Assembly: GCA_041740495.1 (NCBI GenBank)
Contig: JBGSLW010000345.1
Location: 1,431 to 65,430, forward strand
Length of the DNA stretch: 64,000 nt
Reading direction: 5' to 3'
From: Pirellulaceae bacterium
GTDB lineage: Bacteria > Planctomycetota > Planctomycetia > Pirellulales > Pirellulaceae
The notes below the pieces were generated by a model that did no database searches, was not told the origin of the DNA, and saw only the letters and a list, made by a program, of their open reading frames with translations. Below, in pieces: positions 7,934 to 59,695 of this stretch. The translations under genes were made by a program, and so were the position numbers. Each line of letters opens with the position of its first letter. The first letter of the stretch is position 1.

Positions 7934-8106
7934 ATTTCGTTTAACGCCAAGCCGAAGGCGCCGGCTTGCCCTGACCGCCAACCCGAGGGAGCCGGCTTAG
8001 GTCTCCGCGTATTCACCTCATTTCGTTTAACGCCCAGCCGAAGGCGCCGGCTTGCCCTGACCGCCAACCCGAGCGAGCCGGCGCCTTCGGCTTGGCGTTA
8101 AACGAA
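7934..8106. repeat. 86-bp-period direct repeat (2 copies of a ~54-bp core) plus a 31-nt inverted arm forming a long hairpin immediately 3' of the aquaporin gene
   Basis: The core ATTTCGTTTAACGCC(A/C)AGCCGAAGGCGCCGGCTTGCCCTGACCGCCAACCCGAG occurs at 7934-7987 and 8020-8073. Positions 8076-8106 (AGCCGGCGCCTTCGGCTTGGCGTTAAACGAA) are the reverse complement of 7936-7966, and of 8022-8052 with 1 mismatch. Confidence 0.8.
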
Positions 8107-11137: not shown

Positions 11138-12012
11138 GACACCGTTTCGTCAGGAAGTGACAGGATGCGACATCGAATCTGGTCGTACAAACGGTTCGAT
11201 CAACTTGCCGTCCATCGTCACAAGACGCCGACACCGGACTATTGTGCTGTTTGTGCTTTCTGTGGCTGAAGAAACATGGACGGGGAAATCCGGCAATTCT
11301 GGCGGAGTGCCTCCGCCTGCTTCTCACTCGATTCGGCTGCCGACAGCGTACCCCTCCTAAAATGAGGTGCGCTCCAATACTGTTCGCGGCCTAACATTGG
11401 TGTACACATGTATAGTACTGGCGGTTGCGTCGGGGGGATCGGTGTCGCCGCTCCGCGGCTCTTGGTGAATCTAACGCGACCGACTCTGCGGGCTCGCGCC
11501 CGCAGCTACCGTCTGCCGTCGCTCCGCGACTTGGTCGAGCCAGACGGCTGCCCGAAGTGGTGTTCGAGCGTTTCGCCCATTCCTGGCCGATCTGGCGGTG
11601 CCCTTGCGAGCTGGGAACTTGTCGAAAAATCAGCCGCGTCGCGCTAGCGAGCGGTTTCTTCAGCCCCGGTATTGCCGGAAAACCGCCAGGCCGTTAGACC
11701 GTGTTTTCCAAATCACTCTCCCCCGGCGAGAGTCGGCCCGTTAAGGGCCGGAAAGGGCGAGATCGCCCCTCCCCGGACGCGTTTTCGGCCGACCCTCCCG
11801 TTTTTGGGAGGATAAATCCTACTTTGAAAACACTCTCTTAGCTTCGGCCTAGATGTGATTTGGCACCGACTCCCCCAGTCCTTGGGAGGGCAGCCTATCC
11901 CCCCAGCCCCGCAAGAGACGGCAGAGGTTAGCCAGGGGCTCAAGTCCCTGGCTAAAGACGGAAGTCCGCACCAGACTGAACAGGGGAGGAGTCCCGCGAG
12001 TCCCGTTGAAAA

Positions 12013-18518: not shown

Positions 18519-19328
18519 CTAAACGTCGAAAGGCGACGCGATCCCGCCATTGGGCCGCACCCCCTGAATCGTGAGATAGCGCCGGGACCAGATGTCGATC
18601 ATGTCCGCGACGAACAGCACATCGCCCGGGTGTGCGACCAGCAGGTGGTCGGCGCCATCCACCGTGACCAAGGTTCTCGGACCGCGGACGCGCTGGAAGA
18701 TCCGTTCGGCATGATTCCAAGCCAGCGTCTCGTCAGCGGGAGAATGAAACGCGATCAAGGGGATCCGGACGGAGCTCAGTCGTTCGCCGAAATCGGTCTG
18801 CCGAAGAGTCTCCAGCATTTGTCGGGTGATGCGGTGCGACAAACCGCCGATCGTCACGTTCCCTTCGCCGTCGGAGTCGATGGCGGGGTTCATGCCGGAG
18901 AGCAATTCGGCCAGGTGCACTGTATCGGAGGGCGCTGCGATCGTCGCGATCGCGCGCACGGAGGAGAGGGAGGGGGCAGTCGCCAGGGCGGCGGCTCCCC
19001 CCAGGCTGTGGCCGATCAACAGTTGAGGCGGCTGGTACGACGTTCCGAGAAACTCGGCGGCGGCTCGGATGTCCTGCCGATTGGTCTGGAAGTTGGTCGC
19101 CGAAAAGTCCCCGGCACTCTCCCCCAGCCCTGTGAAATCGAATCGCAGCACAGCCAACCCGTGGTCGGCGAGCCGCCGACTGATCCGCACGATCGCCTTG
19201 AGATCCTTGGTGCAGGTGAAGCAAGGGGAGAACAGCGCGAAACCGCGGGGGTGCAACGGCAGCTCCAGGATCCCCGCCAGCTGTTGGCCGCGGCCATTCG
19301 GAAAGCGGACTCGGGTACTTTTTCGCAT
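18519..19328 (-). CDS. alpha/beta-fold hydrolase
   Basis: Internal ATG at 19328 (MRKSTRVRFPNGRGQQ) and nucleophile elbow GHSLGG. The ORF-track extension to 20105 runs through a non-coding repeat array and is not credible as protein. Confidence 0.8.
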   Translation of the reverse strand: MRKSTRVRFPNGRGQQLAGILELPLHPRGFALFSPCFTCTKDLKAIVRISRRLADHGLAVLRFDFTGLGESAGDFSATNFQTNRQDIRAAAEFLGTSYQPPQLLIGHSLGGAAALATAPSLSSVRAIATIAAPSDTVHLAELLSGMNPAIDSDGEGNVTIGGLSHRITRQMLETLRQTDFGERLSSVRIPLIAFHSPADETLAWNHAERIFQRVRGPRTLVTVDGADHLLVAHPGDVLFVADMIDIWSRRYLTIQGVRPNGGIASPFDV

Positions 19329-19428
19329 GATGGAATCGTCCGGCGAGGGCCGCTTGAGTTTCTGGGCCTTGGGTTGTCGGATCCTGGGACTGTCCCAGGA
19401 TACCAACGCGCGTGGATTCCTGCCTCCG

Positions 19429-20144
19429 CAGGAATGACGGTGAGGTGACAGGAATGACGGTGAGGTGACAGGAATGACGATCGGGTGGCACGAACAGTGG
19501 GGTGACACGAACAGTGGGGTGACACGAACGGTGGATTGGCACGAAGACGGTGAGGTGACAGGAATGACGATCGGGTGGCACGAACAGTGGGGTGACACGA
19601 ACGGTGGATTGGCACGAAGACGGTGAGGTGGCAGGAATAACGATCGGGTGGCAGGAACAGGGGGGTGACTCGAATAGTGGGGTGGCAGGAACAGGGGCGT
19701 GGCACGAACAGTGAGGTGACACGAATACGGTGGATTGGCACGAAGACGGTGGGGTGGCAGGAATGACGATCGGGTGGCGCAAACAGTGGGGTGACACGAA
19801 CGGTGGATTGGCACGAAGGCGGTGAGGTGACAGGAATGACGATCGGGTGGCGCAAACAGTGGGGTGACACGAACGGTGGATTGGCACGAAGGCGGTGAGG
19901 TGACACGAAGACGGTGGGGTGGCAGGAATGACGATCGGGTGGCGCGAACAGTGGGGTGACACGAACGGTGGATTGGCACGAAGACGGTGAGGTGACAGGA
20001 ATGACGATCGGGTGGCACGAACAGTGGGGTGACTCGAATAGTGGGGTGGCAGGAACAGGGGCGTGGCACGAACAGTGAGGTGACACGAATACGGTGGATT
20101 GGCACGAAGACGGTGGGGTGGCAGGAATGACGATCGGGTGGCAG
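19429..20144. repeat. ~715-bp array of about 40 degenerate 17-20-nt tandem units with ~73-nt and ~363-nt higher-order periodicity
   Basis: Units include GGAATGACGATCGGGTGGCA, CGAACAGTGGGGTGACA, CGAACGGTGGATTGGCA and CGAAGACGGTGAGGTGACA. Positions 19671-19783 are near-identical to 20034-20146. All three minus-strand frames are open across the array. Confidence 0.9.
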
Positions 20145-20222
20145 AAAGGAGTGTGGGGGCTTGGTGTTCGGGGGTGTCCGCGCGGAGCGGGTGTGCGGTA
20201 TGCTAACGGCCAGTTGAAAATT

Positions 20223-20294
20223 AGCCGCCAGGCGCTAGCCTGCGGTTTCTTGGGGTCGAGCGTGGCCAGGAACCACAGGCGAGCGCCTGACGGC
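20223..20294. repeat. REP-like hairpin, family A (AGCCGCCWGGCGCKAGCCTGCGGTTTC arms)
   Basis: Left arm AGCCGCCAGGCGCTAGCCTGCGGTTTC at 20223-20249. A degenerate complementary arm GAACCACAGGCGAGCGCCTGACGGC lies at 20270-20294. Confidence 0.7.
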
Positions 20295-26186: not shown

Positions 26187-26323
26187 CTAGGCTTTTTCCC
26201 AAAACATCAGCCGCCTGGCGCGAGCCTGCGGTTTCTTCGCGCATCCAACATCGGAAACCGCAGGCTAGCGCCATGCGGCTAATCTCAAGGGGACGCGAAA
26301 CTGTGTTTTGGGACAGAGCCTAG
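26187..26323. repeat. REP/MITE-like nested palindrome, family A, 27 bp downstream of rpoD
   Basis: Inner arms are 26209-26235 (AGCCGCCTGGCGCGAGCCTGCGGTTTC) and 26254-26280 (GAAACCGCAGGCTAGCGCCATGCGGCT). Outer arms are CTAGGCTTTTTCCCAAAACA (26187-26206) and TGTTTTGGGACAGAGCCTAG (26304-26323). Confidence 0.8.
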
Positions 26324-29318: not shown

Positions 29319-29412
29319 CTAGGCTTTGTCCCAAAACATCAGCCGCCTGGCGCGAGCCTGCGGATTCTTCGCGCATCCAACACCGGAAACCGCTGGCTCG
29401 CGCCAGGCGGTA
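29319..29412. repeat. REP-like hairpin, family A (truncated copy)
   Basis: CTAGGCTTTGTCCCAAAACA followed by arms 29341-29367 and 29386-29411. It is nearly identical to the left two thirds of the 26187 element. Confidence 0.8.
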
Positions 29413-41821: not shown

Positions 41822-41831
41822 GGATCGCCGC

Positions 41832-42020
41832 GTTAGTTTCCAGACCTGCCCTCCACCGAGACAAGCTCGGTGGGGAGGCGGAACTGTTGATGGCGGTCTG
41901 CGTTAGTTTCCAGACCTGCCTTCCACCGAGACAGGCTCGGTGGGGAGGCGGAACTGTTGATGGCGGTCTGCGTTAGTTTCCAGACCTGCCTTCCACCGAG
42001 ACAGGCTCGGTGGGGAAAGC
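41832..42020. repeat. 70-bp tandem repeat, ~2.7 copies, each with an internal 8-bp-stem hairpin
   Basis: The unit GTTAGTTTCCAGACCTGCC(C/T)TCCACCGAGACA(A/G)GCTCGGTGGGGAGGCGGAACTGTTGATGGCGGTCTGC starts at 41832, 41902 and 41972. The hairpin is CCACCGAG-acarg-CTCGGTGG. Confidence 0.9.
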
Positions 42021-42080
42021 GGTGGAGTTTAACGTGATCCAAAGGTGATAGCCCACGGGCCTTTTGACCTGGTTTGGCTT

Positions 42081-44943: not shown

Positions 44944-45224
44944 ACGCAGAATTCCGCAGATTAGAAAGATTCGAAGCTTAGGCTGCGGAATTCAACTCTA
45001 TTTGTACTCCGGACGCCAAATCTCAAATCACAAATCTTGAGTCTTGAGTCTTGAGTCTTGAGTCTTGAGTCTTGAGTCTTGAGTCTTGAGTCTTGAGTCT
45101 TGAGTCTTGAGTCTTGAATTTTGAATTTTGAATTTTCAACTCCCCACCCAAACTCTTACGCAAACTTTCCCCCGATCCCCCCCTTCCTTTTCTTATCTGC
45201 GCCAATCTGCGTCCATCTGCGGTC
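44932..45224. mobile_element. MITE-like 293-bp element: ~33-bp imperfect terminal inverted repeats flanking a hairpin and a heptanucleotide microsatellite
   Basis: Left end is GACCGCAGATGAACGCAGAATTCCGCAGATTAG (44932-44964). The reverse complement of the right end (45192-45224) is GACCGCAGATGGACGCAGATTGGCGCAGATAAG, matching at about 27 of 33 positions. No transposase is present. Confidence 0.4.
45035..45139. repeat. heptanucleotide microsatellite: (TCTTGAG)x11, then TCTTGAA, (TTTTGAA)x2, TTTTCAA
   Basis: Counted directly from the sequence as 15 consecutive heptads. Confidence 0.95.
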
Positions 45225-45269: not shown

Positions 45270-46493
45270 CTATCCCGCGTGCACTTTGACCGTCTGCCCG
45301 ACATCGTCCAGCATCGAGCGCAGCGTGTCGTAGTCGGGATGCTTCATGCGGATCCAGGCGTTGGCCATGTAGCCGGCTTCGACCCCCGCGGTCGGCGTGC
45401 CGGGCTCGGGAGTGTGCCAGTCGATCAGCCACTCGCCGTAGCGTTCGCGGATGGCATCGAGTCCGCTGTATCCGGTAATCCGACCATCCCGCTGCGGGCG
45501 AAGGGCGATGATCCCGGTGCTGAAGCGGCGCGAGGTCCGCTGGGTCGGTCGACCATGTACGATCGCCGAAGCCCACTCGACATACAAATCGATGTCGTTG
45601 GCAATGTTATAGAGGTCCCAGGCGCGGACTCCCGGCGGCCGGCAGCCGATTTCGGAAAACCGCAGGCCTTTCGGGCCGAAAAACCACTCCATATGCGTTG
45701 CCGCGGTGCCGATCCCGATCGCGGAGTTGACTGTGCGACCGAGCGCTTTCAGCTCGCCATAGGCCGCTGCGCTGTCGACCTGGTTGGTGGTGATGAACTG
45801 CGGGGAAATCCAGCGCGTTCGCATCGCCTCCAGGACATTCGGGTAATAGTGCGAGACGAATTCGTGCACGACCTGCCCGCCGATGGTGAGCGTATCATAA
45901 AAGCCCTCGTGCCCCTCGATGAACTCTTCCACCGCGACCTCGCCGCCACGCCCGACATGGGATGCATCGAGGGCTGAATGCAGCTGCGGGTCGTCGTCGA
46001 CGCGAGTCGCCCCCGAGGCCCCCGCGCCCGCCCGCGGTTTGACGATCAGCGGATACCCGACTCGCCGGGAAAACTCGAAGATCGCGTCGCGGTCGCCGCT
46101 TCCTAGCGTCTGCGCACAAGGAACGCCGTGCCGCCGCAAGTGTTCCTTCATCAGCGGCTTGTCCCGGCAGAGCGTCGCCGTCTCGATCGAGATGCCTGGA
46201 ATCGTACAAGCCGCCCGCACCTCGGCGACCGGCAAGATATGCGCTTCGACCGTCGCCTCCAGTCGATCGACGTAGATTTTGCTCTGAATAAATCGGACGG
46301 CCTGAGTCATCGCCCCCACATCGCAGACACTGGGGACTTGGATGTAGTCCAATAGCCAGTCCTGCAGCTGGCCGTCGAGCTGCTCTTTGGGCGACTCGCC
46401 AATCGCCACCACCGTCGCCCCGACTTGTTTCAGCCCGCGCACAAACTCCCGCTGATTCGCGGGAAACGAGGGTTCGACGAAAATCACCTGCAT
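45270..46493 (-). CDS. ATP-grasp domain ligase, paralog 1
   Basis: ATG at 46493 (MQVIFVEPSFP). Motifs are GYPLIVKPRAGAGASG, EEFIEGHEGFYD, THMEWF and SEIGCRPPG. Length 407 aa. Confidence 0.85.
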   Translation of the reverse strand: MQVIFVEPSFPANQREFVRGLKQVGATVVAIGESPKEQLDGQLQDWLLDYIQVPSVCDVGAMTQAVRFIQSKIYVDRLEATVEAHILPVAEVRAACTIPGISIETATLCRDKPLMKEHLRRHGVPCAQTLGSGDRDAIFEFSRRVGYPLIVKPRAGAGASGATRVDDDPQLHSALDASHVGRGGEVAVEEFIEGHEGFYDTLTIGGQVVHEFVSHYYPNVLEAMRTRWISPQFITTNQVDSAAAYGELKALGRTVNSAIGIGTAATHMEWFFGPKGLRFSEIGCRPPGVRAWDLYNIANDIDLYVEWASAIVHGRPTQRTSRRFSTGIIALRPQRDGRITGYSGLDAIRERYGEWLIDWHTPEPGTPTAGVEAGYMANAWIRMKHPDYDTLRSMLDDVGQTVKVHAG

Positions 46494-46612
46494 CGCTGCG
46501 TTCCCAAGAAAGGTAGGTTCGATTATCGTTACCGCTTGTGCGACGGGCAATGGTGTTCATGATGGATTTGGCCCGTCATAGATCTGGTGGCCTTTTCTCC
46601 CGTTGTTTCCCC

Positions 46613-46736: not shown

Positions 46737-47957
46737 ATGAAAAATGTCATCTTCGTCGCGCCGTATTTCTTAGACGCCACCGAGCGGTTTATCGCCGCGG
46801 CGGCGAGTTTACCGGGTGTGCGGCTCGGTCTGGTCAGTTGCGACGCGGAAGCGAAACTGAAACCGGGAATCCGCTCGAGGTTGGCCTGTCATTACGCGGT
46901 GCCGTCGCTCGAGACCGATGACCTGCTCCGCGGCGTCCTGGCGCTCCGCCAGCAATTGGGAGGCGCCGATTGCCTTTTGGGGATGCTGGAGCAAATCCAA
47001 GTCGGCCTGGGCGAGATTCGCGATCGACTGGGGATCCCGGGCATGGGGGCCGAAGTCGCCCACAACTTCCGCGACAAATCGCGAATGAAGAATGTCCTGC
47101 GAAATGCCGGGATCCCGTGCGCACGGCATCGCCTGGCGGCGGATGAAGCGACGGCGCTGGAATTCTCTCGCGAGGTCGGCTTTCCCATCGTGGTCAAACC
47201 CCCCGATGGGGCCGGGGCCAAAGGAACTTTTCGCTGCGAGAACGTCGACCAATTGCTGGGGGCCGTTCGCAGCCTGCGTCCCACGCCGCAGCAGCCCGCG
47301 TTGTTAGAAGAGTTTATCACGGGGATCGAACATTCGTATGACAGCGTCTTCGTCGGAGGTCGCTCGGTCTGGTATTCCATTTCGCACTATTTTCCCGGCC
47401 CCCTGGAAGTCCTCCGCGAGCCGTGGATTCAGTGGTGCGTGATCATTCCGCGCGAGTCACTGCATCCTCGCTACGAAGCGATTGTCGAGTGCGGGCCGCG
47501 GGCGATCGCCGCGCTCGGCTTGCGGACCGGCCTCAGTCACCTGGAATGGTTCCGTCGTCCGGACGGTTCGATCGCAGTTTCCGAAGTCGGCGCCCGCCCC
47601 CCCGGCGCGCAATTCACGTCGCTGCTTTCCTACGCCCACGACTTCGATTTCTACCAAGGCTGGGCCGAGCTGCTGATCTTTGAACGGTTTGCGCCCCCCG
47701 AACGCAAGTACGCTTGCGGGGCGGCGTATCTCCGCGGAATGGGGCAGGGGAGAATCGCTCACGTGCACGGAGTCGCCGAGGTCGCGGCGGAAATGGGCTC
47801 GGTGATCGTAGAAGCCAAGCTGCCACAAACCGGACAAAACCCCTCCAGCTCGTACGAAGGGGATGGGTACATCATCGTGCGCCACCCGGAAACTCGCGTC
47901 GTTGAGGAGGCGCTGGAGAAGATCATCCAGCGAATACGGGTCGAAGTCGCGGGGTGA
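46737..47957 (+). CDS. ATP-grasp domain ligase, paralog 2
   Basis: MKNVIFVAPYF start. Motifs are GFPIVVKPPDGAGAKG, EEFITGIEHSYD, SHLEWF and SEVGARPPG. Length 406 aa. Confidence 0.85.
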   Translation: MKNVIFVAPYFLDATERFIAAAASLPGVRLGLVSCDAEAKLKPGIRSRLACHYAVPSLETDDLLRGVLALRQQLGGADCLLGMLEQIQVGLGEIRDRLGIPGMGAEVAHNFRDKSRMKNVLRNAGIPCARHRLAADEATALEFSREVGFPIVVKPPDGAGAKGTFRCENVDQLLGAVRSLRPTPQQPALLEEFITGIEHSYDSVFVGGRSVWYSISHYFPGPLEVLREPWIQWCVIIPRESLHPRYEAIVECGPRAIAALGLRTGLSHLEWFRRPDGSIAVSEVGARPPGAQFTSLLSYAHDFDFYQGWAELLIFERFAPPERKYACGAAYLRGMGQGRIAHVHGVAEVAAEMGSVIVEAKLPQTGQNPSSSYEGDGYIIVRHPETRVVEEALEKIIQRIRVEVAG

Positions 47958-48290: not shown

Positions 48291-49508
48291 ATGAACGTCT
48301 TGATGTTTTCTCCCGGCTTTCCTTACGAGCAGCCGTTTTTCACGCGCGGGTTGCGGCGGCAGGGGGCGAACGTGATCGGCGTGGGGGATCAGCCCGCGCA
48401 CGACGTGTCCCCGATGGCCCGCGAAGCCTTGGCCGATTACTGGCAGATCGGCTCGTTCAGCGACGAAGAACAAGTGCTTGAGCAAATCGTCGACCGCGCA
48501 CGGCATGTGCGGATCGACCAGGTCGAATCGACGTGGGAGCCGCTGATGACCCTCGCCGCCAAGCTGCGGGCCCGCTTGGGACTCGCTGGGATGACGCTCG
48601 AGGAGACGATCCCCTTCCGCGATAAGGAAGTGATGAAACGGATGCTCGATCGGCACGGGATCCGGACTCCGCGGCATGCCAGTTCGACCAGCGCCGACGG
48701 AGTCCGCCAGGCCGCCGCGGCGATCGGTTATCCGATCTGCGTCAAGCCGATTGCGGGGGCGGGGTCCGCCGACACGTTCCGGGTGGAGAACGAGCGCGAA
48801 CTAGAAGACGTGCTGCCGCAGCTGCGGCATGTCCCCGAGGTGAGCGTGGAGGAGTTCATCGAGGGGGAGGAGTATACGTTCGACACAATCTGCATCGACG
48901 GGGAGATCCGCTACTACAACATTTCCTGGTACCGTCCCAATCCCCTGGTGCAACGGCAACATCAATGGATCAGCCCGCAGACGATGGCGTTGCGGAACCC
49001 GGACGATCCGAAGCTCGCGGGGGGGCGGGCCTTGGGTGCGGCGGTCCTCAAGGCTCTGGGGTTTCGCACCGGCTTCACCCATATGGAGTGGTTCCGCAAG
49101 TCGAACGGCGAAGCGGTCTTCGGGGAAATCGCCGCGCGACCCCCTGGGGCCAGTTCGGTCGATATCATGAACTTCGCCAGCGACGTCGACTTGTACGAGG
49201 GCTGGGCCGAGGCGGTCCTGCATCGCCGGTTCAGCATACCGCTGGAGCGAAAATACAACGCCGCGCATATCTTCAAACGGGCCCAGGGGGAGGGGCGGGT
49301 CCAGCGGATCACCGGCCTGGAGAGCTTGCTGGCCGATTATGGCCCCCAGATTTGCACGATCGACCTGCTGCCGATCGGGGCCCCCCGGCGCAACTGGAAG
49401 CAAACCCTCCGCTCCGATGGGATGGTGATCATTCGCCATCCCGACTTGGCCACCGCCTGCGAAATTGCGGATCAGGTCGGGATCCGCTTGCAGATGTATG
49501 CGAGTTAG
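48291..49508 (+). CDS. ATP-grasp domain ligase, paralog 3
   Basis: MNVLMFSPGFP start. Motifs are GYPICVKPIAGAGSAD, EEFIEGEEYTFD, THMEWF and GEIAARPPG. Length 405 aa. Confidence 0.85.
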   Translation: MNVLMFSPGFPYEQPFFTRGLRRQGANVIGVGDQPAHDVSPMAREALADYWQIGSFSDEEQVLEQIVDRARHVRIDQVESTWEPLMTLAAKLRARLGLAGMTLEETIPFRDKEVMKRMLDRHGIRTPRHASSTSADGVRQAAAAIGYPICVKPIAGAGSADTFRVENERELEDVLPQLRHVPEVSVEEFIEGEEYTFDTICIDGEIRYYNISWYRPNPLVQRQHQWISPQTMALRNPDDPKLAGGRALGAAVLKALGFRTGFTHMEWFRKSNGEAVFGEIAARPPGASSVDIMNFASDVDLYEGWAEAVLHRRFSIPLERKYNAAHIFKRAQGEGRVQRITGLESLLADYGPQICTIDLLPIGAPRRNWKQTLRSDGMVIIRHPDLATACEIADQVGIRLQMYAS

Positions 49509-49570: not shown

Positions 49571-49724
49571 TTATGGGATAGGCTCTTTCCCGGTACGCAA
49601 ACGCATACACTTGCAACCTTCACCTTGAGTAACGATGATCTTCTAAAGGCCGATTTGCGATCAACTTTCGCGTTGAATTGAAAACGGTTTCGATTTGATT
49701 TCTCTGTCCTCGTCCCGGAGAGCC

Positions 49725-50417
49725 ATGTCGAACAACACGTCAAGTCGTTTGAAACGTGGGATCCGACACGCTATCGTTCTGGTCGCCATGGTATTGGTGT
49801 CGCCGATGATTCTCATGGCGCAACTGGAGAAATGGCTTCAATGGGGCGAGTGGTGGTTTGTCGCCTTTTCCGAAATGTTGAGCCAAATCCCCGGCCGAAC
49901 CGGCGCTGCTTTGCGCTTGGGTTACTATCGCGGAACATTGAACCGATGCGGGTTCAATGTCTACTTTGGCTTTGGAACCAAAATCAACCACCGAACGGCG
50001 GAAATTGCCCAAGGTGTGGTCATCGGGTCACATTGCAATATCGGAACAGTAACGCTGGGCGAAGGGGTCTTGGTCGGATCGCGCGTTTGTCTTTTGAGTG
50101 GGGGTCGGCAACACGACCACACGGGAGACAATGAAAGGCTGGAGCACGGCGCACCCTATTTTGTCAGAATTCATATTGGCCCGCGGACTTGGCTGGGCGA
50201 GGGAGCCATCGTGATGGCCGATGTCGGCGGTCGGAGCACCGTCGCGGCAGGCAGCGTGGTCTTTCGGCCGATTCCTGAAGGCGTCATGGCCATGGGGAAC
50301 CCCGCCCGAGTTGTTTCGCGAGATTTCTCCGTGCCCGCCATTCCGAAAGACCGGGCGGACGGTCAGCCGATTCCGTCCATCGTGGGAGCCGTGTCTCCAA
50401 AGATCGATTCACCCTGA
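49725..50417 (+). CDS. membrane-associated hexapeptide-repeat (LbH, WcaF/MAT-like) acyltransferase
   Basis: ATG at 49725. An N-terminal hydrophobic segment AIVLVAMVLVSPMILM is followed by left-handed beta-helix hexapeptide repeats (GVVIGSHCNIGTVTLGEGVLVGSRVCLL...IGPRTWLGEGAIVMADVGGRSTVAAGSVV). Confidence 0.8.
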   Translation: MSNNTSSRLKRGIRHAIVLVAMVLVSPMILMAQLEKWLQWGEWWFVAFSEMLSQIPGRTGAALRLGYYRGTLNRCGFNVYFGFGTKINHRTAEIAQGVVIGSHCNIGTVTLGEGVLVGSRVCLLSGGRQHDHTGDNERLEHGAPYFVRIHIGPRTWLGEGAIVMADVGGRSTVAAGSVVFRPIPEGVMAMGNPARVVSRDFSVPAIPKDRADGQPIPSIVGAVSPKIDSP

Positions 50418-50432
50418 TTGGCAAGTGGAAAA

Positions 50433-50566
50433 GTAAGCGTTCACGGGGCGAACAACCGAATGGTTCACTTGGAGGGGGTCAGACCCATTTTTCGGAGTTA
50501 GCGTACCTTGCAGATTGCCCTTTCAAGCCGAAACATGCGTCAGACCCCCGGCGCGTGAACGGTTAC
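50433..50566. repeat. 134-bp inverted repeat, left copy (IR-L)
   Basis: The reverse complement of 56801-56934 matches 50433-50566 with about 5 mismatches by hand alignment. It ends 12 nt before the ATG at 50579. Confidence 0.9.
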
Positions 50567-50578
50567 AGTGGAATACCC

Positions 50579-51577
50579 ATGGACAAGACTCGACTGAAAC
50601 CGATTCGATACGGCCGCCCCGTATTAGGATTGTTAACCGTAGTGACGTTGTTGCTGGTCCTGCAAATCCCCATCGTTCCGAAAGAGCCTCCTATGTCACC
50701 CAAGTCCAATCGCGTTCCCGACTGGAGCAATTATTCCAGCGCGTCGCCGGGCGGCCGACTCCGGCTGCTTTTCATCCACCATTCCTGTGGCGGTCAATGG
50801 CTGGCGCCGCTGGGAACCAATCAGGGCCGCCAGAGTATTTACGAAAGTTCGGACAAGGGCGGAGGCTTGCGTCCGGCATTGGAGGAACAAGGCTACGAAA
50901 TCCATGAGGCCTCGTATGGAAGCCGCGTCGGCGATCGGACCGATCTGTTTGATTGGTGGCCGAAATTCCGAGATCAGATGCCGCAAATTCTCCAATGTGC
51001 CCACCAAGACGAGGTCTACTCCAACGGCGAGTCGAATCAGATTGTGGTCTTCAAATCGTGTTTTCCGAACAGCTTTTTCGTGGGGGAGGGAAAGTCACCT
51101 GGGAATCCGCTTGGTCCTGAATTGACTGTGGCGAATGCCCAGGCGGCGTATCGGGAGCTGTTGCCCCTGTTCGAAAACCAACCGCAGACGCTGTTCGTCG
51201 TGGTTACGGCCCCGCCGTTGGTCCTCGAGTCGATTCCGCTGTACAAATCGCTTGCCAAATGGCTTTTGGGTCGGCCCAGTCTCAGCCGTTCCGGGGTTTT
51301 CGCCCGGAAATTCAACAACTGGCTCAAGGATCCCGAGACCGGTTGGTTGGCAAATTATTCCCAGAAAAATGTAGCCGTTTTCGACTATTTCGACGTTTTG
51401 ACGGAGGATGGGAAATCCAACTTCTTGCGTTTCCCGTCCGGCCCAAGAAAAATGGACAATCACCCGAGTTCGGCCGGCAACCAACGTGCCACCGAAGCGT
51501 TTATTCCTTTCCTGAACCAAGCCGTCCGACGATCGGGACTGGTTCAACTGCCTCATCTTCAACCCTCACCCCAGTAA
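50579..51577 (+). CDS. hypothetical N-terminally anchored protein (alpha/beta-fold-like, no named motif recognised)
   Basis: ATG at 50579 (MDKTRLKPIRYGRPVLGLLTVVTLLLVL, TM). It has strand-end motifs LLFIHHSCGG, IVVFKSCFPN and LFVVVTAPPL. Sampled lines look somewhat lower in GC than the neighbours. Confidence 0.6.
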   Translation: MDKTRLKPIRYGRPVLGLLTVVTLLLVLQIPIVPKEPPMSPKSNRVPDWSNYSSASPGGRLRLLFIHHSCGGQWLAPLGTNQGRQSIYESSDKGGGLRPALEEQGYEIHEASYGSRVGDRTDLFDWWPKFRDQMPQILQCAHQDEVYSNGESNQIVVFKSCFPNSFFVGEGKSPGNPLGPELTVANAQAAYRELLPLFENQPQTLFVVVTAPPLVLESIPLYKSLAKWLLGRPSLSRSGVFARKFNNWLKDPETGWLANYSQKNVAVFDYFDVLTEDGKSNFLRFPSGPRKMDNHPSSAGNQRATEAFIPFLNQAVRRSGLVQLPHLQPSPQ

Positions 51578-51791
51578 GTCATGTCGGTTGGATATCGATA
51601 GCGCCGAACGCAATTGCGATCGGAATCGGATCCCTTGTCTCGTGGTGCGTCTCGGCCGATGGAGGCCTGAATGCACACCGCGATTCGATCAGGCGATCTC
51701 CGGCACACGGATCGAGCCGTAACATCTTTTCCCGCTTTCCCTTCCAGCTGCCTCACCTCTCAATTCGCCTCGTCATCGGTAGGAGTAATTC

Positions 51792-52046
51792 GTGGATCCA
51801 TGCTCGCGCATTCGACAATTTTTGACCGAGAATTTCTTGTACGGCGCCGGCGAAACACTGACGGATGACAACGCATCGCTGGTGCAATCCGGGATCGTGG
51901 ACTCGACCGGTATCCTGGAACTCGTCGCGTTCGTGGAAGAATCGTTCGAGATGCGGGTCCGCGACGAAGAGATCATTCCAGCCAACTTCGATTCGGTGAA
52001 CCAGATTCTCATGTTCGTCCAGCGCAAATCCGCCGTAACCGCCTAA
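51792..52046 (+). CDS. acyl/peptidyl carrier protein (DltC-like)
   Basis: GTG start 6 nt after AGGAG. The 84-aa protein has the phosphopantetheine-site motif GIVDSTGILELV. Confidence 0.8.
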   Translation: MDPCSRIRQFLTENFLYGAGETLTDDNASLVQSGIVDSTGILELVAFVEESFEMRVRDEEIIPANFDSVNQILMFVQRKSAVTA

Positions 52047-52078
52047 GCGCTTTTGGGCAATCCGGCCGGAAGGACGAT

Positions 52079-53614
52079 ATGCAGCTGGTCCAGGACTATC
52101 TCGAGCAAAGTGCCGAACGGAACCCAGACAAGATCGCTCTGGTCTGCGATGGCCAGCGGTATTCCTACGCAGCGATCGACACGCTGGCGAATCGGCTGGC
52201 GAACGTGCTGCTCGCTCATGGCGTTGACCGTGGGGATCGCGTGGTTCTCTTGCTTCCCAATGGCCTGGAATTGGCGATTGGCATATTCGGCGTGTTGAAG
52301 GCGGGCGCCGTTTTTGTGGTGCTCCACAGCTCCATGAAATTTGACAAAGTCCAGCGGATCGCGGCGGACTGCGGAGCGGTGGCGATGTTGGCCTCGACCA
52401 GGGACCGTGCGTCGGCGGCCTGGATCAAGGATAACGTCCCCTCGTTGAAGCGGGTGATGTTGATGGACGATTCGGGACAACCCTCGGGGCCCGACGACCC
52501 GAGGTTTCTCCGCTGGACCGATCTGTCAATAGCGGCGTCGTCGGAACGTCCGCACCGCAAAACGATCGATCGAGATTTGGCTTTTTTGGTCTATACCTCG
52601 GGGAGCAGTGGCGTCGCCAAGGGGGTGATGTCGGCGCATGCCAACGTGACCTTCGCGGTGGAGTCGATAACGACGTATCTCGAAAACGTCGCGGACGACG
52701 TCCTCCTCTGCGCGCTGCCGATGTCGTTCAGCTACGGGCTGTACCAGCTGTTCATGATGTTGCAGGTAGGCGCCACCCTGGTGCTCGAACGATCCTTTGC
52801 GTTTCCAGCCCATTTTCTCCAGTTGATGGAGCGGGAGGGGGTGACGGGACTGCCCGGAGTTCCCACCTTGTTCAGTATCTTACTGGAAACGGACACCTCG
52901 CCCTACGATTGCAGCCGATTGCGGTACATCACGAATGCCGGGGCCGCATTGAATACGACTCTGATCTCGCGGCTGCGCGAACGGTTTCCGCGCGCGCAAC
53001 TCTATTCGATGTACGGATTGACGGAAACCAAGCGGACGTTGTACTTGCCCCCTGCCGAACTCGATCGCCGGCCCGAATCGGTCGGAATCGCCATCCCGGG
53101 GACCGAAGTCTGGCTGGTCGACGAGGACGATCAACGGTTGGGAGCCAACCAAGTCGGAGAGCTGGTAGTACGCGGCGGCCATGTGATGCGAGGATATTGG
53201 AACGATCCGGTCGGCACCGCGCGTCGTTTTCGGCCCGGTCCGCTCCCCGGGGAATTTGTGTGTTATAGCGGGGACCTGTTCCGCCGGGATGACGAAGGTT
53301 TCTATTACTTCGTCAGCCGCAAAGACGACATCCTCAAATGCCGTGGAGAAAAAGTTGCGCCGAAGGAAATCGAGGAAGTCCTGTGCCGCATGGCGGACGT
53401 CTTCGAAGCGGCGGTGATCGGCGTCCCCGACCCGACACTCGGACAGGCGATCAAGGCCTTTGTTGTCCGCCGGACAGCTGCCTTGACGGACAATGACGTG
53501 CTGCGGCATTGTCGGGCGCATCTCGAAGATTTCATGATCCCGCGCGAAATTGTGTTCGTGACGGAACTCCCCAAAAACGCCAACGGCAAGATTCAAAAGT
53601 CACTTCTGCAGTGA
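52079..53614 (+). CDS. ANL-superfamily adenylating enzyme (AMP-dependent acyl-CoA/acyl-carrier-protein ligase)
   Basis: Motifs are LVYTSGSSGVAKGV (A3), YGLTET (A5), YSGDLFRRDDEGFYYFVSRKDD (A7/A8) and PKNANGKIQK (A10 Lys). Confidence 0.9.
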   Translation: MQLVQDYLEQSAERNPDKIALVCDGQRYSYAAIDTLANRLANVLLAHGVDRGDRVVLLLPNGLELAIGIFGVLKAGAVFVVLHSSMKFDKVQRIAADCGAVAMLASTRDRASAAWIKDNVPSLKRVMLMDDSGQPSGPDDPRFLRWTDLSIAASSERPHRKTIDRDLAFLVYTSGSSGVAKGVMSAHANVTFAVESITTYLENVADDVLLCALPMSFSYGLYQLFMMLQVGATLVLERSFAFPAHFLQLMEREGVTGLPGVPTLFSILLETDTSPYDCSRLRYITNAGAALNTTLISRLRERFPRAQLYSMYGLTETKRTLYLPPAELDRRPESVGIAIPGTEVWLVDEDDQRLGANQVGELVVRGGHVMRGYWNDPVGTARRFRPGPLPGEFVCYSGDLFRRDDEGFYYFVSRKDDILKCRGEKVAPKEIEEVLCRMADVFEAAVIGVPDPTLGQAIKAFVVRRTAALTDNDVLRHCRAHLEDFMIPREIVFVTELPKNANGKIQKSLLQ

Positions 53615-53623
53615 TGCGATCGA

Positions 53624-55675
53624 ATGTGTGGACTCGTCGGTATGCTTGATCCCCGGCGCGCGACGTCGGACCCCGGCGGCGCCATGCGGCGGATGCTTGG
53701 TTCGATCCAGCATCGTGGACCCGATCAGTGCGGCTTGTACTTGTACGCCAGCGGCGCCTTGCAGGTCGCATTGGCACATGCTCGGTTGAGTATTATCGAC
53801 ATCGACGGTGGGCAACAGCCGCTTGGCAACCGGGACGGCGCCAAATGGATTGTCTTCAACGGCGAAGTTTTCAACTTTCGGGAACTTCGACGCGACTTGG
53901 AGAAGCTCGGCCATCGCTTTGCCACCTCCACCGATACGGAGGTGGTGTTGCATCTCTACGAACGATATGGAGCGGCCTGTCTGGAGCTGCTCAATGGGCA
54001 ATTTGCCCTGGCGATCTGGGACGAGTCCGCCCGGCGCTTGTTCTTGGCTCGCGATCCGCAGGGGATCTTGCCGCTGTATTACACCTGGCGAAATGGGCAG
54101 CTGTTGTTCGCTTCGGAAATCAAAGCGTTGCTGGCCCACCCGCATGTCGAAGCGGCGATCGACCCGATTGGATTGGATCAAGTGTTTTCCTATTGGGGGC
54201 CGTTGGCGCCTCGCACTTGCTTTACCGACGTCCGAGCACTGCCGCCGGGGCATCGCGCTACGGTTTCCGCCGACGGCCAAATGCAGGTTGAACGTTACTG
54301 GTCCCTGTCGTTTCCGGGGCAAGGGGATGAGTCGCGGCTGGACCTCCGGGAGGCCGCGGAGGAATTGCACGCGTTGTTAGACGATGCCACCAAAATCCGC
54401 CTGCGAGCCGATGTGACGGTGGGCGCCTATTTGAGCGGGGGACTCGATTCTTCCGCGGTCACGGCCCTGGCCCGGCGAGCTGTCGAGGAACGGCTTGAGA
54501 CCTTTTCTGTTGCGTTTGCGGACGAGTCGTTCGATGAGAGCAAATTCCAACGGGCGACGGCCGATTTCTTGGGAACTCGGCACCGCGTGGTGACTTGTGA
54601 CTCAAACGATATTGGAGCGGTGTTTCCGGAGGTGGTTTGGCACGCGGAGGCGGCGCTGCTGCGAACCGCGCCGGCCCCGCTATTCTTGTTGTCAAGGCTC
54701 GTGCGGGATTCGGGGATCAAAGTCGTCTTGACCGGCGAAGGATCCGACGAGTTCCTAGGGGGCTACAACATTTTCAAGGAAGCCAAGGTCCGGCGATTCT
54801 GGGCGCGGCAGCCTGAATCGGCGTGGCGGCCCCGCTTGCTGGAACGGCTCTATCCCTACATACCGCAGTTGAGCGCCGCGGGGCTTCCCTATCTCAAGTC
54901 ATTTTTTGGCCAGGACTTGGATGCGTCCGGACCCTACTTTTCACACCAGGTCCGTTGGAACGGCACGTCGCGCCTCAAGCGGATCTTTTCCGCAGAATTC
55001 CGCGAGACGATCCGTAACGAATTCGCGACTTCCGGAGCTGGCCGCGAACCGTCGTTCATTGGCCCGCTGGTGCCACCGGAGTTTGAAGGCTGGAGTGGAC
55101 TGGCGCGGGCCCAGTTTCTGGAGGCGACGGTTTTTCTGCCCGACTACTTGCTCTCGTCTCAGGGAGATCGGATGTTGATGGCCCACGGGATCGAAGGGCG
55201 ATTCCCATTTCTGGATCCGCGCGTGATCTCCTTTTGCAACCAATTATCGCCGCACCTGAAACTGTGCGGACTCAACGAAAAATTCGTACTAAAACAGGCG
55301 ATAGGCCGCGAGTTGCCGACCAGCGTGGGCGAACGGACCAAACGCCCGTTCCGCGCGCCCATCCAAGCAGCCTTTGTTCGCAACGGGCAATGGGTGGAAT
55401 GGGCCGCCGATTTGTTATCCGCGCCGGCCATTCAATCGAGCGGCTATTTTGAGCCGAAAGCCGTTGCGGGTTTGACCCACAAGGCGACTCGCGCCCAATC
55501 GCTCAGCGAAATGGACGGGATGGCCTTGGTCGGTGTGATTTCGACACAATTGCTGCATTCAATGTTTGTGCAGCGCGTGCGGCAGCCCAGCAACTTCCAC
55601 CGTGTGCACGAGTGGAAAGTTGTGGACCACTCGCACGAGCCCTCGGCGGCAACTCAAGAACGATTTTTGCAATGA
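53624..55675 (+). CDS. asparagine synthetase B-family glutamine amidotransferase
   Basis: N-terminal nucleophile MCGLVG (Cys2), Ntn-GATase domain, PP-loop SGGLDSS. Length 683 aa. Confidence 0.9.
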   Translation: MCGLVGMLDPRRATSDPGGAMRRMLGSIQHRGPDQCGLYLYASGALQVALAHARLSIIDIDGGQQPLGNRDGAKWIVFNGEVFNFRELRRDLEKLGHRFATSTDTEVVLHLYERYGAACLELLNGQFALAIWDESARRLFLARDPQGILPLYYTWRNGQLLFASEIKALLAHPHVEAAIDPIGLDQVFSYWGPLAPRTCFTDVRALPPGHRATVSADGQMQVERYWSLSFPGQGDESRLDLREAAEELHALLDDATKIRLRADVTVGAYLSGGLDSSAVTALARRAVEERLETFSVAFADESFDESKFQRATADFLGTRHRVVTCDSNDIGAVFPEVVWHAEAALLRTAPAPLFLLSRLVRDSGIKVVLTGEGSDEFLGGYNIFKEAKVRRFWARQPESAWRPRLLERLYPYIPQLSAAGLPYLKSFFGQDLDASGPYFSHQVRWNGTSRLKRIFSAEFRETIRNEFATSGAGREPSFIGPLVPPEFEGWSGLARAQFLEATVFLPDYLLSSQGDRMLMAHGIEGRFPFLDPRVISFCNQLSPHLKLCGLNEKFVLKQAIGRELPTSVGERTKRPFRAPIQAAFVRNGQWVEWAADLLSAPAIQSSGYFEPKAVAGLTHKATRAQSLSEMDGMALVGVISTQLLHSMFVQRVRQPSNFHRVHEWKVVDHSHEPSAATQERFLQ

Positions 55676-55689
55676 AGGAGAACAGAGCG

Positions 55690-56661
55690 ATGCCCGAATT
55701 CCACCGCGACATTCTACGGATCGACCCGAAAGGCGAGGTCGATCGGATTGTCGATCGCCTGCGGCGCCAGGTATTGGAGACCCTGCATCGTGAAGGCGCC
55801 GTCTTGGGTGTGAGCGGCGGGGTGGACTCGGCCGTCACCTTGGCTTTGTGTGTGCGGGCGTTCGCACCCCAACAGATCGTGGCGTTGTTGTTACCGGAAA
55901 TCGATTCGAGCCCGGATAGCGTTCGCCTCGGTCGCTCCGTTTGCCGGCAGTTCGGGATCGCGCCGATTGTCGAGAACCTCACCGCGGCACTCTACGGATT
56001 CGGTTGTTACCAACGGCGCGATGAAGCCGTACGGGCCTTGATCCCCGACTACGACAGCACCCACCGGCTGAAGATCACGCTCCCCCCATCCACCTTGGAT
56101 CAGGGAAGCCTCAATGTCTACAGCGTGGTGGCCGTCAGTCCCGAGGGGATCGAGGAGCGAAAGCGGCTGCGGGCGAAAGAGCTTCGCCAAATCGTGGCCG
56201 CGACGAATTTCAAACAACGTTCTCGAGCTGCGATGTTGTTTTACTACGCCGATCTCCGAAACTTCGCAGTGATCGGCACGCCGCCCAAGAACGAGCACGA
56301 CATGGGGTTCTTCGTCAAGTTCGGCGACGGCGCGCTGGATGTCAAGCCGCTAGGGCATTTGTACAAAAGCCAAGTCTACCAACTCGCCGAGTATTTGGAG
56401 GTTCCGGCCGAGATCCGCAGCCGCCCGCCGACTTCCGATACGTACAGCGCGGGGAGTTCACAGGAGGAGTTTTTTTTCAGGCTGCCGTGTCAGCAAATGG
56501 ACTTGCTCTGGTACGGCTGGGAAAACAATATATCGCCGACGGTCGTCGCACGCGAAATGGAACTCTCCGAAGCACAGGTCCAACACGCTTTTCAGGACTT
56601 CGCGCGGCGAACGCAAACCACCGCCTACCTCCGCACGCCGCCATTGGATTGCAGAGAATGA
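55690..56661 (+). CDS. NAD+ synthetase-family (NadE-like) PP-loop ATP pyrophosphatase
   Basis: ATG at 55690, 9 nt after AAGGAG, with PP-loop GVSGGVDSAVT. It lies 15 nt after the AsnB-family stop. Confidence 0.8.
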   Translation: MPEFHRDILRIDPKGEVDRIVDRLRRQVLETLHREGAVLGVSGGVDSAVTLALCVRAFAPQQIVALLLPEIDSSPDSVRLGRSVCRQFGIAPIVENLTAALYGFGCYQRRDEAVRALIPDYDSTHRLKITLPPSTLDQGSLNVYSVVAVSPEGIEERKRLRAKELRQIVAATNFKQRSRAAMLFYYADLRNFAVIGTPPKNEHDMGFFVKFGDGALDVKPLGHLYKSQVYQLAEYLEVPAEIRSRPPTSDTYSAGSSQEEFFFRLPCQQMDLLWYGWENNISPTVVAREMELSEAQVQHAFQDFARRTQTTAYLRTPPLDCRE

Positions 56662-56800
56662 AGCCACACGCATTCCGGCCGGGAGGGAAGTAAATTCACT
56701 GCTGGGCCGTGAGGCCCCGAGCGCGGTGGTTATGACTCGGGACGCACCACGTGCCAGCGGAAAAACGCACGGCACTTTCGCACGAATAGCCCGCCGTACG

Positions 56801-56934
56801 GTAACCGTTCACGCGCCGGGGGTCTGACGCATTTTTCGGCTTGAAAGGGGAATCTGCAAGGTACGCCAACTCCGAAAAATGGGTCTGCCCCCCTCCAAGT
56901 GAACCATTCGGTTGTTCGCCCCATGAACGCTTAC
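56801..56934. repeat. 134-bp inverted repeat, right copy (IR-R)
   Basis: See IR-L. It lies between the converging ends of the NadE-like gene (stop 56661) and the TlpA-like gene (stop 56992). Confidence 0.9.
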
Positions 56935-56991
56935 TGACGAACAATACCTCGTTCGACGGTATCTCCGTCCGGAAAAAAATGCGCGACGGTA

Positions 56992-58230
56992 TCAGTCTTT
57001 CTTCTCCTCCCCCTGTATCGGCTCGACCCCGTATTTCTTCGCCTGCTGTTCGAGGTATTGCCGCACGCCGGCGTTCTCGGGGTCAGCCAGGCGGATCGCC
57101 TTTTCGGCTGCGGATTTGGCTTTGTCGGCGTCTCCTGCCGCGAGATGGGCGGCGGCAATTTGAAAATGGGCCGCGGCAATTTGCAGCGTGTCCTCGGCGT
57201 CCGACAGACCGTGCAAGGCCTTCTCGGCGGCGGCCACGGCCTTGGGGCCATACTCTTTTACCTTCGCAATGTCGCCGGTCGCAGCGTAGGTCTTGGTCAA
57301 ACGGACTAGCGCCGCCGGAGTTTCGCCGTCGATCGCCATCGCCGCTTCCGCTGCCTTCAGGCCCGCCGCGGCCAAGTCAGGCTGTTCGATCGCTTGCTCG
57401 GCGGTCAGCGCGTCGGCGACGATGGCGAGACACATGGTATCGTTTCGTTGTAGCGCCTTAATCACCATGGCGTCGGCGAGAGTTGCCGCGTCGGGGAATC
57501 GTTCGGCCGCAATCAGCAGTCGAAGCCGGGCGGCGTTCATATACGGATCGGTCGCCAGCCGGGGCCACCGGGCATAAAACTTCTCCCATTCAGCCAATTG
57601 GGCGGCGGGGTCGCCCGGCTGGCTCATCACCGCGTAGGTAGCGTCCCACAAGTCGTCGGCGGCCTCGAGCTCCGCCGTTCCCTTCACCGGATCCCATGAG
57701 CCTTCGATGACCTTCGGCAACACTTCATCCAAGAATAGCGGATGACCGATGTAGGCAATCTTGCCGTCCGCGCCGATCACAAACGAGCAGGGAATACCGC
57801 CTCGACCCGCCGCGGTCATATAGGCCTCGTACGTCTGGCGGTCGTCAGTGTAGGCGATGGAGTATCCGAGTTTGCCTGCTCGCTTTCGAACGAACTCGGC
57901 GACCTTCTCGAAACTGTTGCCCGGGTCGTTGGATGTGAACCCGATGATCGTGACGCCTTTGGACCCCAGCTCATCTTGGAGGTCGCCCAGGTGAGGCATC
58001 ATGCAGACGCAAGGACCGCACCAGGTAGCCCAAAACTCCACGACGTACACCCGGCCCTGCTCGAACGACGTTACCTCCGCGCCGGCTAGCCACTTCGTTG
58101 CCTGCAACGGGGGCGGCGCATCGCCCAGTCGCAACCGCGGTTTTTCCGCAACGGGCTCGGAAACATCTTGAGCCGATGTCGAGACGCAGCCCAGGGCGAC
58201 AACCGACAAAATAAGAAGTATGGTTCGCAT
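56992..58230 (-). CDS. TlpA/redoxin-family thiol-disulfide oxidoreductase with C-terminal TPR-like domain, secreted
   Basis: ATG at 58230 after AGGAG. Signal peptide MRTILLILSVVALGCVSTSAQ, the active site WATWCGPC, and an Ala-rich helical-repeat C-terminus. Confidence 0.82.
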   Translation of the reverse strand: MRTILLILSVVALGCVSTSAQDVSEPVAEKPRLRLGDAPPPLQATKWLAGAEVTSFEQGRVYVVEFWATWCGPCVCMMPHLGDLQDELGSKGVTIIGFTSNDPGNSFEKVAEFVRKRAGKLGYSIAYTDDRQTYEAYMTAAGRGGIPCSFVIGADGKIAYIGHPLFLDEVLPKVIEGSWDPVKGTAELEAADDLWDATYAVMSQPGDPAAQLAEWEKFYARWPRLATDPYMNAARLRLLIAAERFPDAATLADAMVIKALQRNDTMCLAIVADALTAEQAIEQPDLAAAGLKAAEAAMAIDGETPAALVRLTKTYAATGDIAKVKEYGPKAVAAAEKALHGLSDAEDTLQIAAAHFQIAAAHLAAGDADKAKSAAEKAIRLADPENAGVRQYLEQQAKKYGVEPIQGEEKKD

Positions 58231-58358
58231 GTTTGACTCCTGCAAAATTGTGGGCACAGACAGTCCTAGCGGTTGGCAACCACCTTCAAGCAGCGCCGAA
58301 AGACTAGGTAGAGTCTATCCTAGAAACGGTGCACCAGTCGAACCAAGGCTGCGCTTGT

Positions 58359-59391: not shown

Positions 59392-59449
59392 ACTTGAGCA
59401 GTCCGTCGAAGGAGTTGTGTGCGGTGATGGCGGTGTAAATGGCGGGGAA

Positions 59450-59626
59450 GAAACCGCAGGCTAGCGCCTGGCGGCTCATAGGAAACGATGGCAAAGTTAA
59501 TCGGCGGGTTATTCGAAACAGACTCACGGCGTCCAGGGGAGGAAACCGCAGGCTAGCGCCTGGCGGCTCGTAGGAAACGATGACAATGTTAATCGGCGGG
59601 TTATTCGAAGCGGACTCACGGCGTGT
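59450..59626. repeat. 92-bp tandem duplication (~1.9 copies), each unit starting with a family A REP arm
   Basis: GAAACCGCAGGCTAGCGCCTGGCGGCTC(A/G)TAGGAAACGATG(G/A)CAA(A/T)GTTAATCGGCGGGTTATTCGAA... starts at 59450 and 59542. Confidence 0.85.
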
Positions 59627-59695
59627 AGGGATTACTGCGTCTAAGGATTACTGTGTCTAAGGAATACTGCGCCTAAGGATTAACGCGTCTAGGGC
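59626..59695. repeat. 16-bp tandem repeat (TAAGGATTACTGCGTC-like), ~4.3 copies, running into the rpsL stop codon
   Basis: TAGGGATTACTGCGTC / TAAGGATTACTGTGTC / TAAGGAATACTGCGCC / TAAGGATTAACGCGTC / TAGGGC... Confidence 0.85.

Follow-up and report, generated by a model that had tools for sequence, protein, structure and literature searches.

The Correia elements of Neisseria are bacterial MITEs (miniature inverted-repeat transposable elements) that are comparable to the repeats analysed here and belong to another parent insertion-sequence family. Our repeats, termed copy L and copy R, are a pair of near-identical 134-bp sequences in opposite orientation that stand 6.2 kb apart, with five co-oriented genes between them, in a 64,000-nt stretch of the genome assembly of a Pirellulaceae bacterium (GCA_041740495.1, contig JBGSLW010000345.1, positions 1,431 to 65,430 of the forward strand; hereafter the window). 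We consider it very probable that the two repeats are separate copies of a non-autonomous MITE, 134 nt long, with IS66-type terminal inverted repeats. Three other kinds of described repeat invite comparison. REP/REPIN elements, which are mobilised by RAYT (Y1) transposases, likewise form hairpins from imperfect palindromes (~100-150 nt) scattered between genes, but REPINs are not known to leave an 8-9-bp target-site duplication or to have GTAA...TTAC termini; a REPIN reading was therefore rejected, as the family of the window element has these termini and 75% of its members are flanked by duplications. Invertons, too, consist of inverted repeats around a segment whose orientation would affect expression, but they combine short repeats with a nearby site-specific recombinase, whereas the window repeats look like transposon copies with a duplication of their own and have no recombinase nearby. 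Integron attC sites form arrays of one orientation that go with an integrase and carry RYYYAAC ... GTTRRRY core sites, which the termini GTAAGCG and GGTTAC do not fit; with the copies inverted and no integrase found, this candidate was also set aside.

A close likeness is to MITEs of the MITEPsy1 type, which are small, non-coding and multi-copy, have terminal inverted repeats and target-site duplications, are mostly intergenic, form a long hairpin if transcribed and depend on a transposase acting in trans (PMC3189936); MITEPsy1 itself differs in its parent insertion-sequence family and in having a 4-nt duplication. IS66-family insertion sequences, including the single-open-reading-frame (single-ORF) ISBst12 group, share with the window element and its relatives the GTAAGCG/GTAACCG termini and duplications that are mostly 8 bp long. 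They have been described in Frankia as having 20-30-bp terminal repeats starting GTAAGCG and 8-bp direct repeats (PMC11946415), with which further IS66 examples agree (PMC12888890 and PMC12898284). The window element differs from them in its length of 134 nt and in having no transposase gene, and a minority of its family, probably including copy L, has 9-bp rather than 8-bp duplications. MITEs and the IS66 family are both already known, and a repeat-bracketed cassette, as the initial annotation of this DNA posed it, is an ordinary finding. No description of an IS66-derived MITE was found in the searchable literature, the coverage of which is incomplete and does not include ISfinder, and IS66 is not mentioned in a 2024 review of prokaryotic MITEs.

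The repeat pair and its IS66-type termini

Copy L and the reverse complement of copy R (Table 1) are identical at 129 of 134 positions in a global alignment, which bears out the near-identity with about five differences that had been read by hand in the initial annotation. A repeat search returned them as one inverted pair with arms at 50432-50569 and 56798-56935 (138 nt, 96% complementary, 6228 nt apart), and similarity is lost within 1-3 nt of the borders at both copies, as sharply as had been claimed. Two 30-34-nt blocks of the element occur in the window only at copies L and R when up to three mismatches are allowed (none is expected from shuffled sequences), and nhmmer with subfamily profiles found no third copy, nor any partial or degenerate one, in the 64 kb.

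No ORF is confined to the element. Its ends are GTAAGCGTTCACGG...CGTGAACGGTTAC, one beginning GTAAGCG and the other GTAACCG; the outer terminal inverted repeats match at 12 of 13 positions, and inner inverted arms are also present. The ends are asymmetric, one having ~27 extra nt, and this asymmetry is common to a related metagenome subfamily and to the nearest relative locus described below. What the initial annotation took for a duplicated GTCAGACCC is the inner part of two ~30-nt transposon ends, and the internal quasi-palindrome that it saw in each copy is real, since each folds as a single long hairpin (~-52 kcal/mol, z-scores -1.9 to -3.0).

The affinity of these ends was seen in a comparison with 72,556 plasmids, in which the sole notable blastn match was to the end of an annotated IS66-family element in plasmids of Aeromonas salmonicida. 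GTAACCGTTCACCG stands at either border of this 1533-bp element (L125:2498-4030), whose protein product has the Pfam domains DDE_Tnp_IS66, zf-IS66 and DUF6444. Its right end, GCGTCAACCCCCGGCCGGTGAACGGTTAC, is in register with the right end of the MITE, GCGTCAGACCCCCGGCGCGTGAACGGTTAC, and ~28 of 31 terminal nt are shared; it is because of this register with the element terminus that the match, weak in itself, carries weight. The MITE itself encodes nothing and would have been moved in trans, by a DDE transposase recognising the ~30-bp ends; integration at a staggered cut would then leave a target-site duplication of 8 or 9 bp.

Target-site duplications and the element family

The flanks that directly abut copy L, AGTGGAAAA (left) and AGTGGAATA (right), match at 8 of 9 positions, a match for which we estimate a chance of ~5 in 10,000; 11 metagenome copies and three copies at the nearest relative locus show this 9-bp geometry without mismatch. 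When copy L and one duplicate are removed, the acyltransferase stop is separated by an 18-nt spacer from the ATG at 50579, with TGATTGGCAAGTGGAAWACCCATG as the reconstructed empty site, and the right-hand duplicate would preserve the original 12 nt before that ATG. The two copies would on this evidence have entered two separate short intergenic spacers, copy L the 18-nt spacer within an operon, between the acyltransferase and hypothetical genes, and copy R the stretch that separates the NadE-like gene from the TlpA gene converging on it. Their opposite orientation at a distance of 6.2 kb would then be coincidental.

Metagenome contigs were matched against a pattern of two 13-nt termini with four degenerate positions, GTAASCGTTCAYG and CRTGAACGSTTAC, separated by a gap of 95-125 nt. 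This pattern, drawn from end to end of the element, recovers a large and diverse set of IS66-type MITEs in environmental metagenomes: it matched at least 120 contigs, and 122 elements (the metagenome matches listed plus the window copies) fall into 44 clusters at 75% identity, one of which consists of the two window copies. The interiors are highly diverse, whereas all 244 ends have fixed termini, with G also at two positions outside the search pattern in ~80% of them. In one metagenome, 14 contigs have copies that are 83-97% identical, each at a different target site.

Full flanks were available for 117 elements, comprising 115 metagenome copies among the matches listed and the two window copies. 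An 8- or 9-bp duplication with at most one mismatch abuts the element in 88 of the 117 (75%), these being 54 perfect 8-bp duplications, 11 perfect 9-bp duplications, 2 that match at 8/9 and 21 with one mismatch, whereas control flanks taken 20 nt further out reach 7/8 in 0 of 114 cases. The duplications abut the GTAA...TTAC termini directly. Such duplications are what transposition leaves when the staggered cut is of fixed length, which argues that the family is a MITE and neither a structural nor a regulatory repeat. The reconstructed empty sites fall within a stop-free stretch of 250 codons or more in 42% of cases, versus 77% of random positions on the same contigs, a rough indication that the family prefers intergenic DNA. 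Two duplication lengths occur in the family: 8 bp in the 54 perfect cases from the metagenome loci (L005-L124), and 9 bp in the 11 perfect cases, in all three intact copies of the nearest relative locus and at copy L. The difference in length may stem from distinct mobilising transposases or from distinct subfamilies.

Among TlpA homologues the closest, with 70% identity, is encoded on a 1.3-Mb contig, and the 20 kb around its gene are the nearest relative locus (L131). This locus contains five MITE copies of the same architecture, one of them truncated and one with an internal deletion, and three have perfect 9-bp duplications (CAATTTGAC, GTGTCGCTG and ACATGGGTC). The initial annotation had listed, as its third explanation, two copies of a dispersed genomic repeat, and had taken a generic repeat at dozens of unrelated loci as grounds to refute its cassette reading; both are supported at the level of the family, which occupies more than 100 unrelated metagenome loci, and of the nearest relative, with its five loci in 20 kb. 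The TlpA homologue of L131 is bracketed by two MITE copies, at 8585-8690 and 10037-10170; the truncated one lies just upstream of TlpA and the other 199 nt downstream, oriented like copy R. We tried the downstream MITE as an orthologue of copy R, but the flanks are unalignable past the last codons, and a shared ancestral insertion is not shown.

Several observations weigh against the interpretation of the repeats as IS66-type MITE copies. The flanks of copy R, CGCCGTACG and TGACGAACA, match at only 5 of 9 positions and contain no clear duplication. Taken alone, the Aeromonas blastn match is short and has E = 0.4, and this Aeromonas element is the single reference element behind the homology of the termini to a transposase-coding IS66 element. 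No IS66-family transposase (TnpC) was found by tblastn within the 64-kb window, and the extra family termini in two metagenome loci (L055 and L113) bound no IS66 transposase genes. Finally, the evidence of dispersal concerns the family and the nearest relative and does not extend to the exact 134-mer of the window. An exact 22-nt block of the window subfamily had no metagenome match, an exact 20-mer had no true copy among 185,579 reference genomes (which do not include the host genome), and the element had no blastn match in phages. A single match to the 20-mer, in a metagenome-assembled genome of Paracoccaceae, was judged to be due to chance, there being no similarity beyond the 20-mer. Two candidates for full-length relatives were also rejected. 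Between the termini in L055 (4550...8482) and L113, Pfam either gave hits to a response regulator and an AAA ATPase or gave none; and no family terminus was seen upstream of an IS66-like N-terminal fragment (DUF6444 + zf-IS66) in L063. If the repeats are MITE copies, the IS66-family transposase that mobilised them would be encoded elsewhere in the host genome.

The strong fold also admits a different origin, in which the hairpin was selected as a structured RNA, either small or cis-regulatory, that might for instance signal processing or stability, and was duplicated at two transcripts. The folding energy of each copy would suit such an RNA, as would the location of both copies on the sense strand shortly past a stop codon (16 nt and 56 nt 3' of it) and the retention of pairing in inner-arm changes across subfamilies; however, paired changes at the ends are expected in any case, because both ends bind one transposase. 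Rfam has no family at copy L or R at gathering or permissive thresholds, target-site duplications flank most family members, the interiors are unrelated between subfamilies with the termini alone fixed, and syntenic relatives lack the element in the corresponding intergenic spacer. We therefore regard an RNA origin as highly unlikely, whereas secondary exaptation of a MITE as an mRNA hairpin would be compatible with these observations.

The gene unit around copy L

Upstream of copy L, three ATP-grasp genes are followed by a hexapeptide-repeat acyltransferase gene, and downstream of it come the five genes listed in Table 1. The initial annotation had placed the repeats correctly relative to these genes: copy L begins 16 nt past the acyltransferase stop and ends 12 nt ahead of the ATG at 50579, and copy R is placed where the NadE-like gene and the TlpA/redoxin gene converge. 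Its label of carrier protein for the 84-aa ORF fared less evenly, as Pfam gives this ORF no hit in the window and gives the syntenic homologue in one relative (L003) only a faint PP-binding hit.

Table 1 Coordinates of the repeat copies, their flanks, adjoining genes and a second repeat family, numbered from the first letter of the window
Feature	Position	Strand	Remarks
Second palindromic repeat family	11626-11660, 20217-20251, 26187-26283, 29319-29410, 59444-59627		
Hexapeptide-repeat acyltransferase	49695-50417	+	directly upstream of copy L
Left target-site duplication of copy L, AGTGGAAAA	50424-50432		abuts terminus
Probable MITE, copy L	50433-50566	+	non-coding, 134 nt
Outer terminal inverted repeats of copy L	50433-50445 and 50554-50566		GTAAGCGTTCACG and CGTGAACGGTTAC
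Inner inverted arms of copy L	50474-50495 and 50528-50549		GGGGGTCAGACCCATTTTTCGG and CCGAAACATGCGTCAGACCCCC
Right target-site duplication of copy L, AGTGGAATA	50567-50575		followed by ACC and ATG 50579
Five co-oriented genes between copies L and R	50579-56661	+	
Hypothetical protein	50579-51577	+	GDSL/SGNH Pfam hits in some homologues
84-aa carrier-like ORF	51792-52046	+	
ANL ligase	52079-53614	+	
AsnB-like gene	53624-55675	+	
NadE-like gene	55612-56661	+	
Probable MITE, copy R	56801-56934	-	134 nt, inverted orientation, 129/134 identical to copy L
TlpA/redoxin-family gene	56992-58257	-	3' end toward copy R, 56 nt away

Three distant relatives have the same five genes after the same acyltransferase gene and no flanking repeats, which the initial annotation had itself named as an observation against its reading of these genes as a repeat-bounded module. 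The order in L003/L004 is Hexapep, hypothetical, PP-binding (faint), AMP-binding, Asn synthase and NAD synthase, with a Hexapep-hypothetical spacer of 66 nt. The order in L128 is the same, with a carrier-sized ORF that has no Pfam hit and with Hexapep and hypothetical genes that overlap by 4 nt, and in L002 the Hexapep-hypothetical pair is kept alone. The closest homologues of the hypothetical protein are only ~60% identical, and the L002, L003/L004 and L128 loci contain neither family termini nor a blastn match to the element. Since the acyltransferase and hypothetical genes are adjacent and co-oriented in relatives, copy L lies inside a conserved unit and not at a module boundary. By gene order, the five genes form the downstream portion of a six-gene unit that is conserved and has been interrupted by copy L, and the cluster should be annotated as a six-gene unit split by a small transposon and not as a mobile or invertible five-gene cassette. 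No ATP-grasp genes stand beside the six-gene unit in L003 and L128, where the neighbours are glycosyltransferase, Wzy, MurJ and Poly_export genes. On either side of the L003 cluster, at 60-340 and 15900-16190, stand oppositely oriented octamer microsatellites, (CCACTCCA)n and (TATTGGAG)n; the long 'inverted repeats' of L003 are these microsatellites and are unrelated to the element.

These comparisons bear on whether the pair could be the two ends of a 6.5-kb composite transposon that brought the five genes in. MITE pairs that flank passenger genes are known elsewhere (PMC3189936), and an inverted arrangement with outward-facing termini is the geometry that such a unit requires. Target-site duplication was checked outside 50433 and 56934, but the left outer flank, AGTGGAAAA, differs from the right one, TGACGAACA, whereas the two flanks of copy L match; there is hence no composite-transposon signature, and the 6.2-kb segment did not, by this measure, arrive as a unit. 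Moreover, L003/L004 and L128 have this acyltransferase gene ahead of the five genes and no repeats, which puts the left 'end' inside the conserved unit, and GC content makes no step at the repeat borders (0.56-0.60 inside versus 0.56-0.63 around). We consider acquisition of the genes as a composite transposon exceedingly unlikely. Of the MITE-like ends proposed in the initial annotation, the name stands as a description of the kind of sequence, and the paired mobilisation of a unit does not.

Inversion of the segment was the other way in which the pair had been proposed to delimit a cassette. Recombination, either RecA-dependent or by an unlinked recombinase, would flip the 6.2 kb and uncouple the five genes from an upstream promoter, as an on/off switch. 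Inverted repeats of 134 nt with 96% identity, 6.2 kb apart, are in principle enough for homologous recombination, and as copy L stands between co-oriented genes that are adjacent in relatives, inversion would alter expression. However, Pfam searches of the ~48 window ORFs and tblastn with an IS66 transposase found no recombinase or transposase, in agreement with what had been noted for the window. The duplication of copy L is intact on both sides (8/9), and an odd number of inversions since insertion would separate its halves; the five differences between the copies persist, so that frequent recombination with gene conversion has not homogenised them; the same element family occurs at more than 100 unrelated single sites; and the assembled orientation agrees with the conserved gene order of L003 and L128 and, by that order, is the ancestral one. 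We therefore hold an invertible segment to be very unlikely. It is highly improbable, too, that the two inverted MITE copies have been co-opted as recombination substrates, with occasional inversion and phase-variable modification of a surface glycan in this member of the Planctomycetota; were this so, the five genes (SGNH-like, carrier, ANL ligase, AsnB-like and NadE-like) would be disconnected from the upstream ATP-grasp and acyltransferase genes. Neither movement nor inversion of the cassette as a unit accords with the separate 9-bp duplication of copy L, the unmatched outer flanks and the splitting by copy L of a gene pair that is adjacent in relatives, and two separate MITE insertions remain our preferred explanation.

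An independent assembly reproduces exactly the junction from the TlpA flank to copy R. This Logan contig (L130, 1544 nt, from SRR28170474, which is a likely source of host reads) stops 42 nt into copy R, 30 nt past the last copy-specific difference. A stop at this point would fit a graph collapsing at the repeat with k = 31, if that value of k is assumed, and L130 illustrates how MITEs of this family break short-read assemblies.

For the two MITE copies themselves, the identity of 96% would point to recent amplification. Copy L is probably transcribed within the operon, because no T-run follows the hairpin on the plus strand. Copy R is probably in the 3' untranslated region of the TlpA gene, because on the minus strand it comes after the TlpA stop and ahead of a terminator-like hairpin (56784-56766), although such sites are not enriched between 50000 and 57500 (11 versus 9.4 in shuffles); a scan for sigma-70 promoters over the same interval found none. 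Both copies would then be co-transcribed as long mRNA hairpins, and elements of this family would be a means by which hairpins of ~-50 kcal/mol are placed inside operons.

Neighbouring genes and other repeats in the window

Two of the ATP-grasp genes that precede the acyltransferase gene are paralogues in tandem (46737-47957 and 48291-49508), and the third is on the opposite strand (45270-46550); a heptamer microsatellite, (TCTTGAG)n, occupies 45007-45139 at the left edge of this cluster. The best named matches of the window's TlpA protein are from Gemmata and Gemmataceae (61-63% identity), and those of its EF-G are from Pirellulaceae (70-71% identity).

A second dispersed palindromic repeat family, with the core AAGAAACCGCAGGCTAGCGCCTGGCGGCT, has at least seven copies in both orientations, some of them in tandem or as hairpin pairs (Table 1). 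Other repeats are local. A tandem array at 19439-20147 has a 17-nt period and higher-order units of 73-165 nt, and overlaps the 5' part of an alpha/beta hydrolase ORF (18519-20105). A 70-nt unit is present three times at 41830-42039 with a GC-rich hairpin in each, and an 86-nt tandem palindromic repeat lies at 7934-8106 between cobW-like and MIP-channel genes. The sole Rfam match in the window above the gathering score is an Acido-Lenti-1 RNA at 11486-11531 on the plus strand (40.8 bits, E = 8.5e-06).

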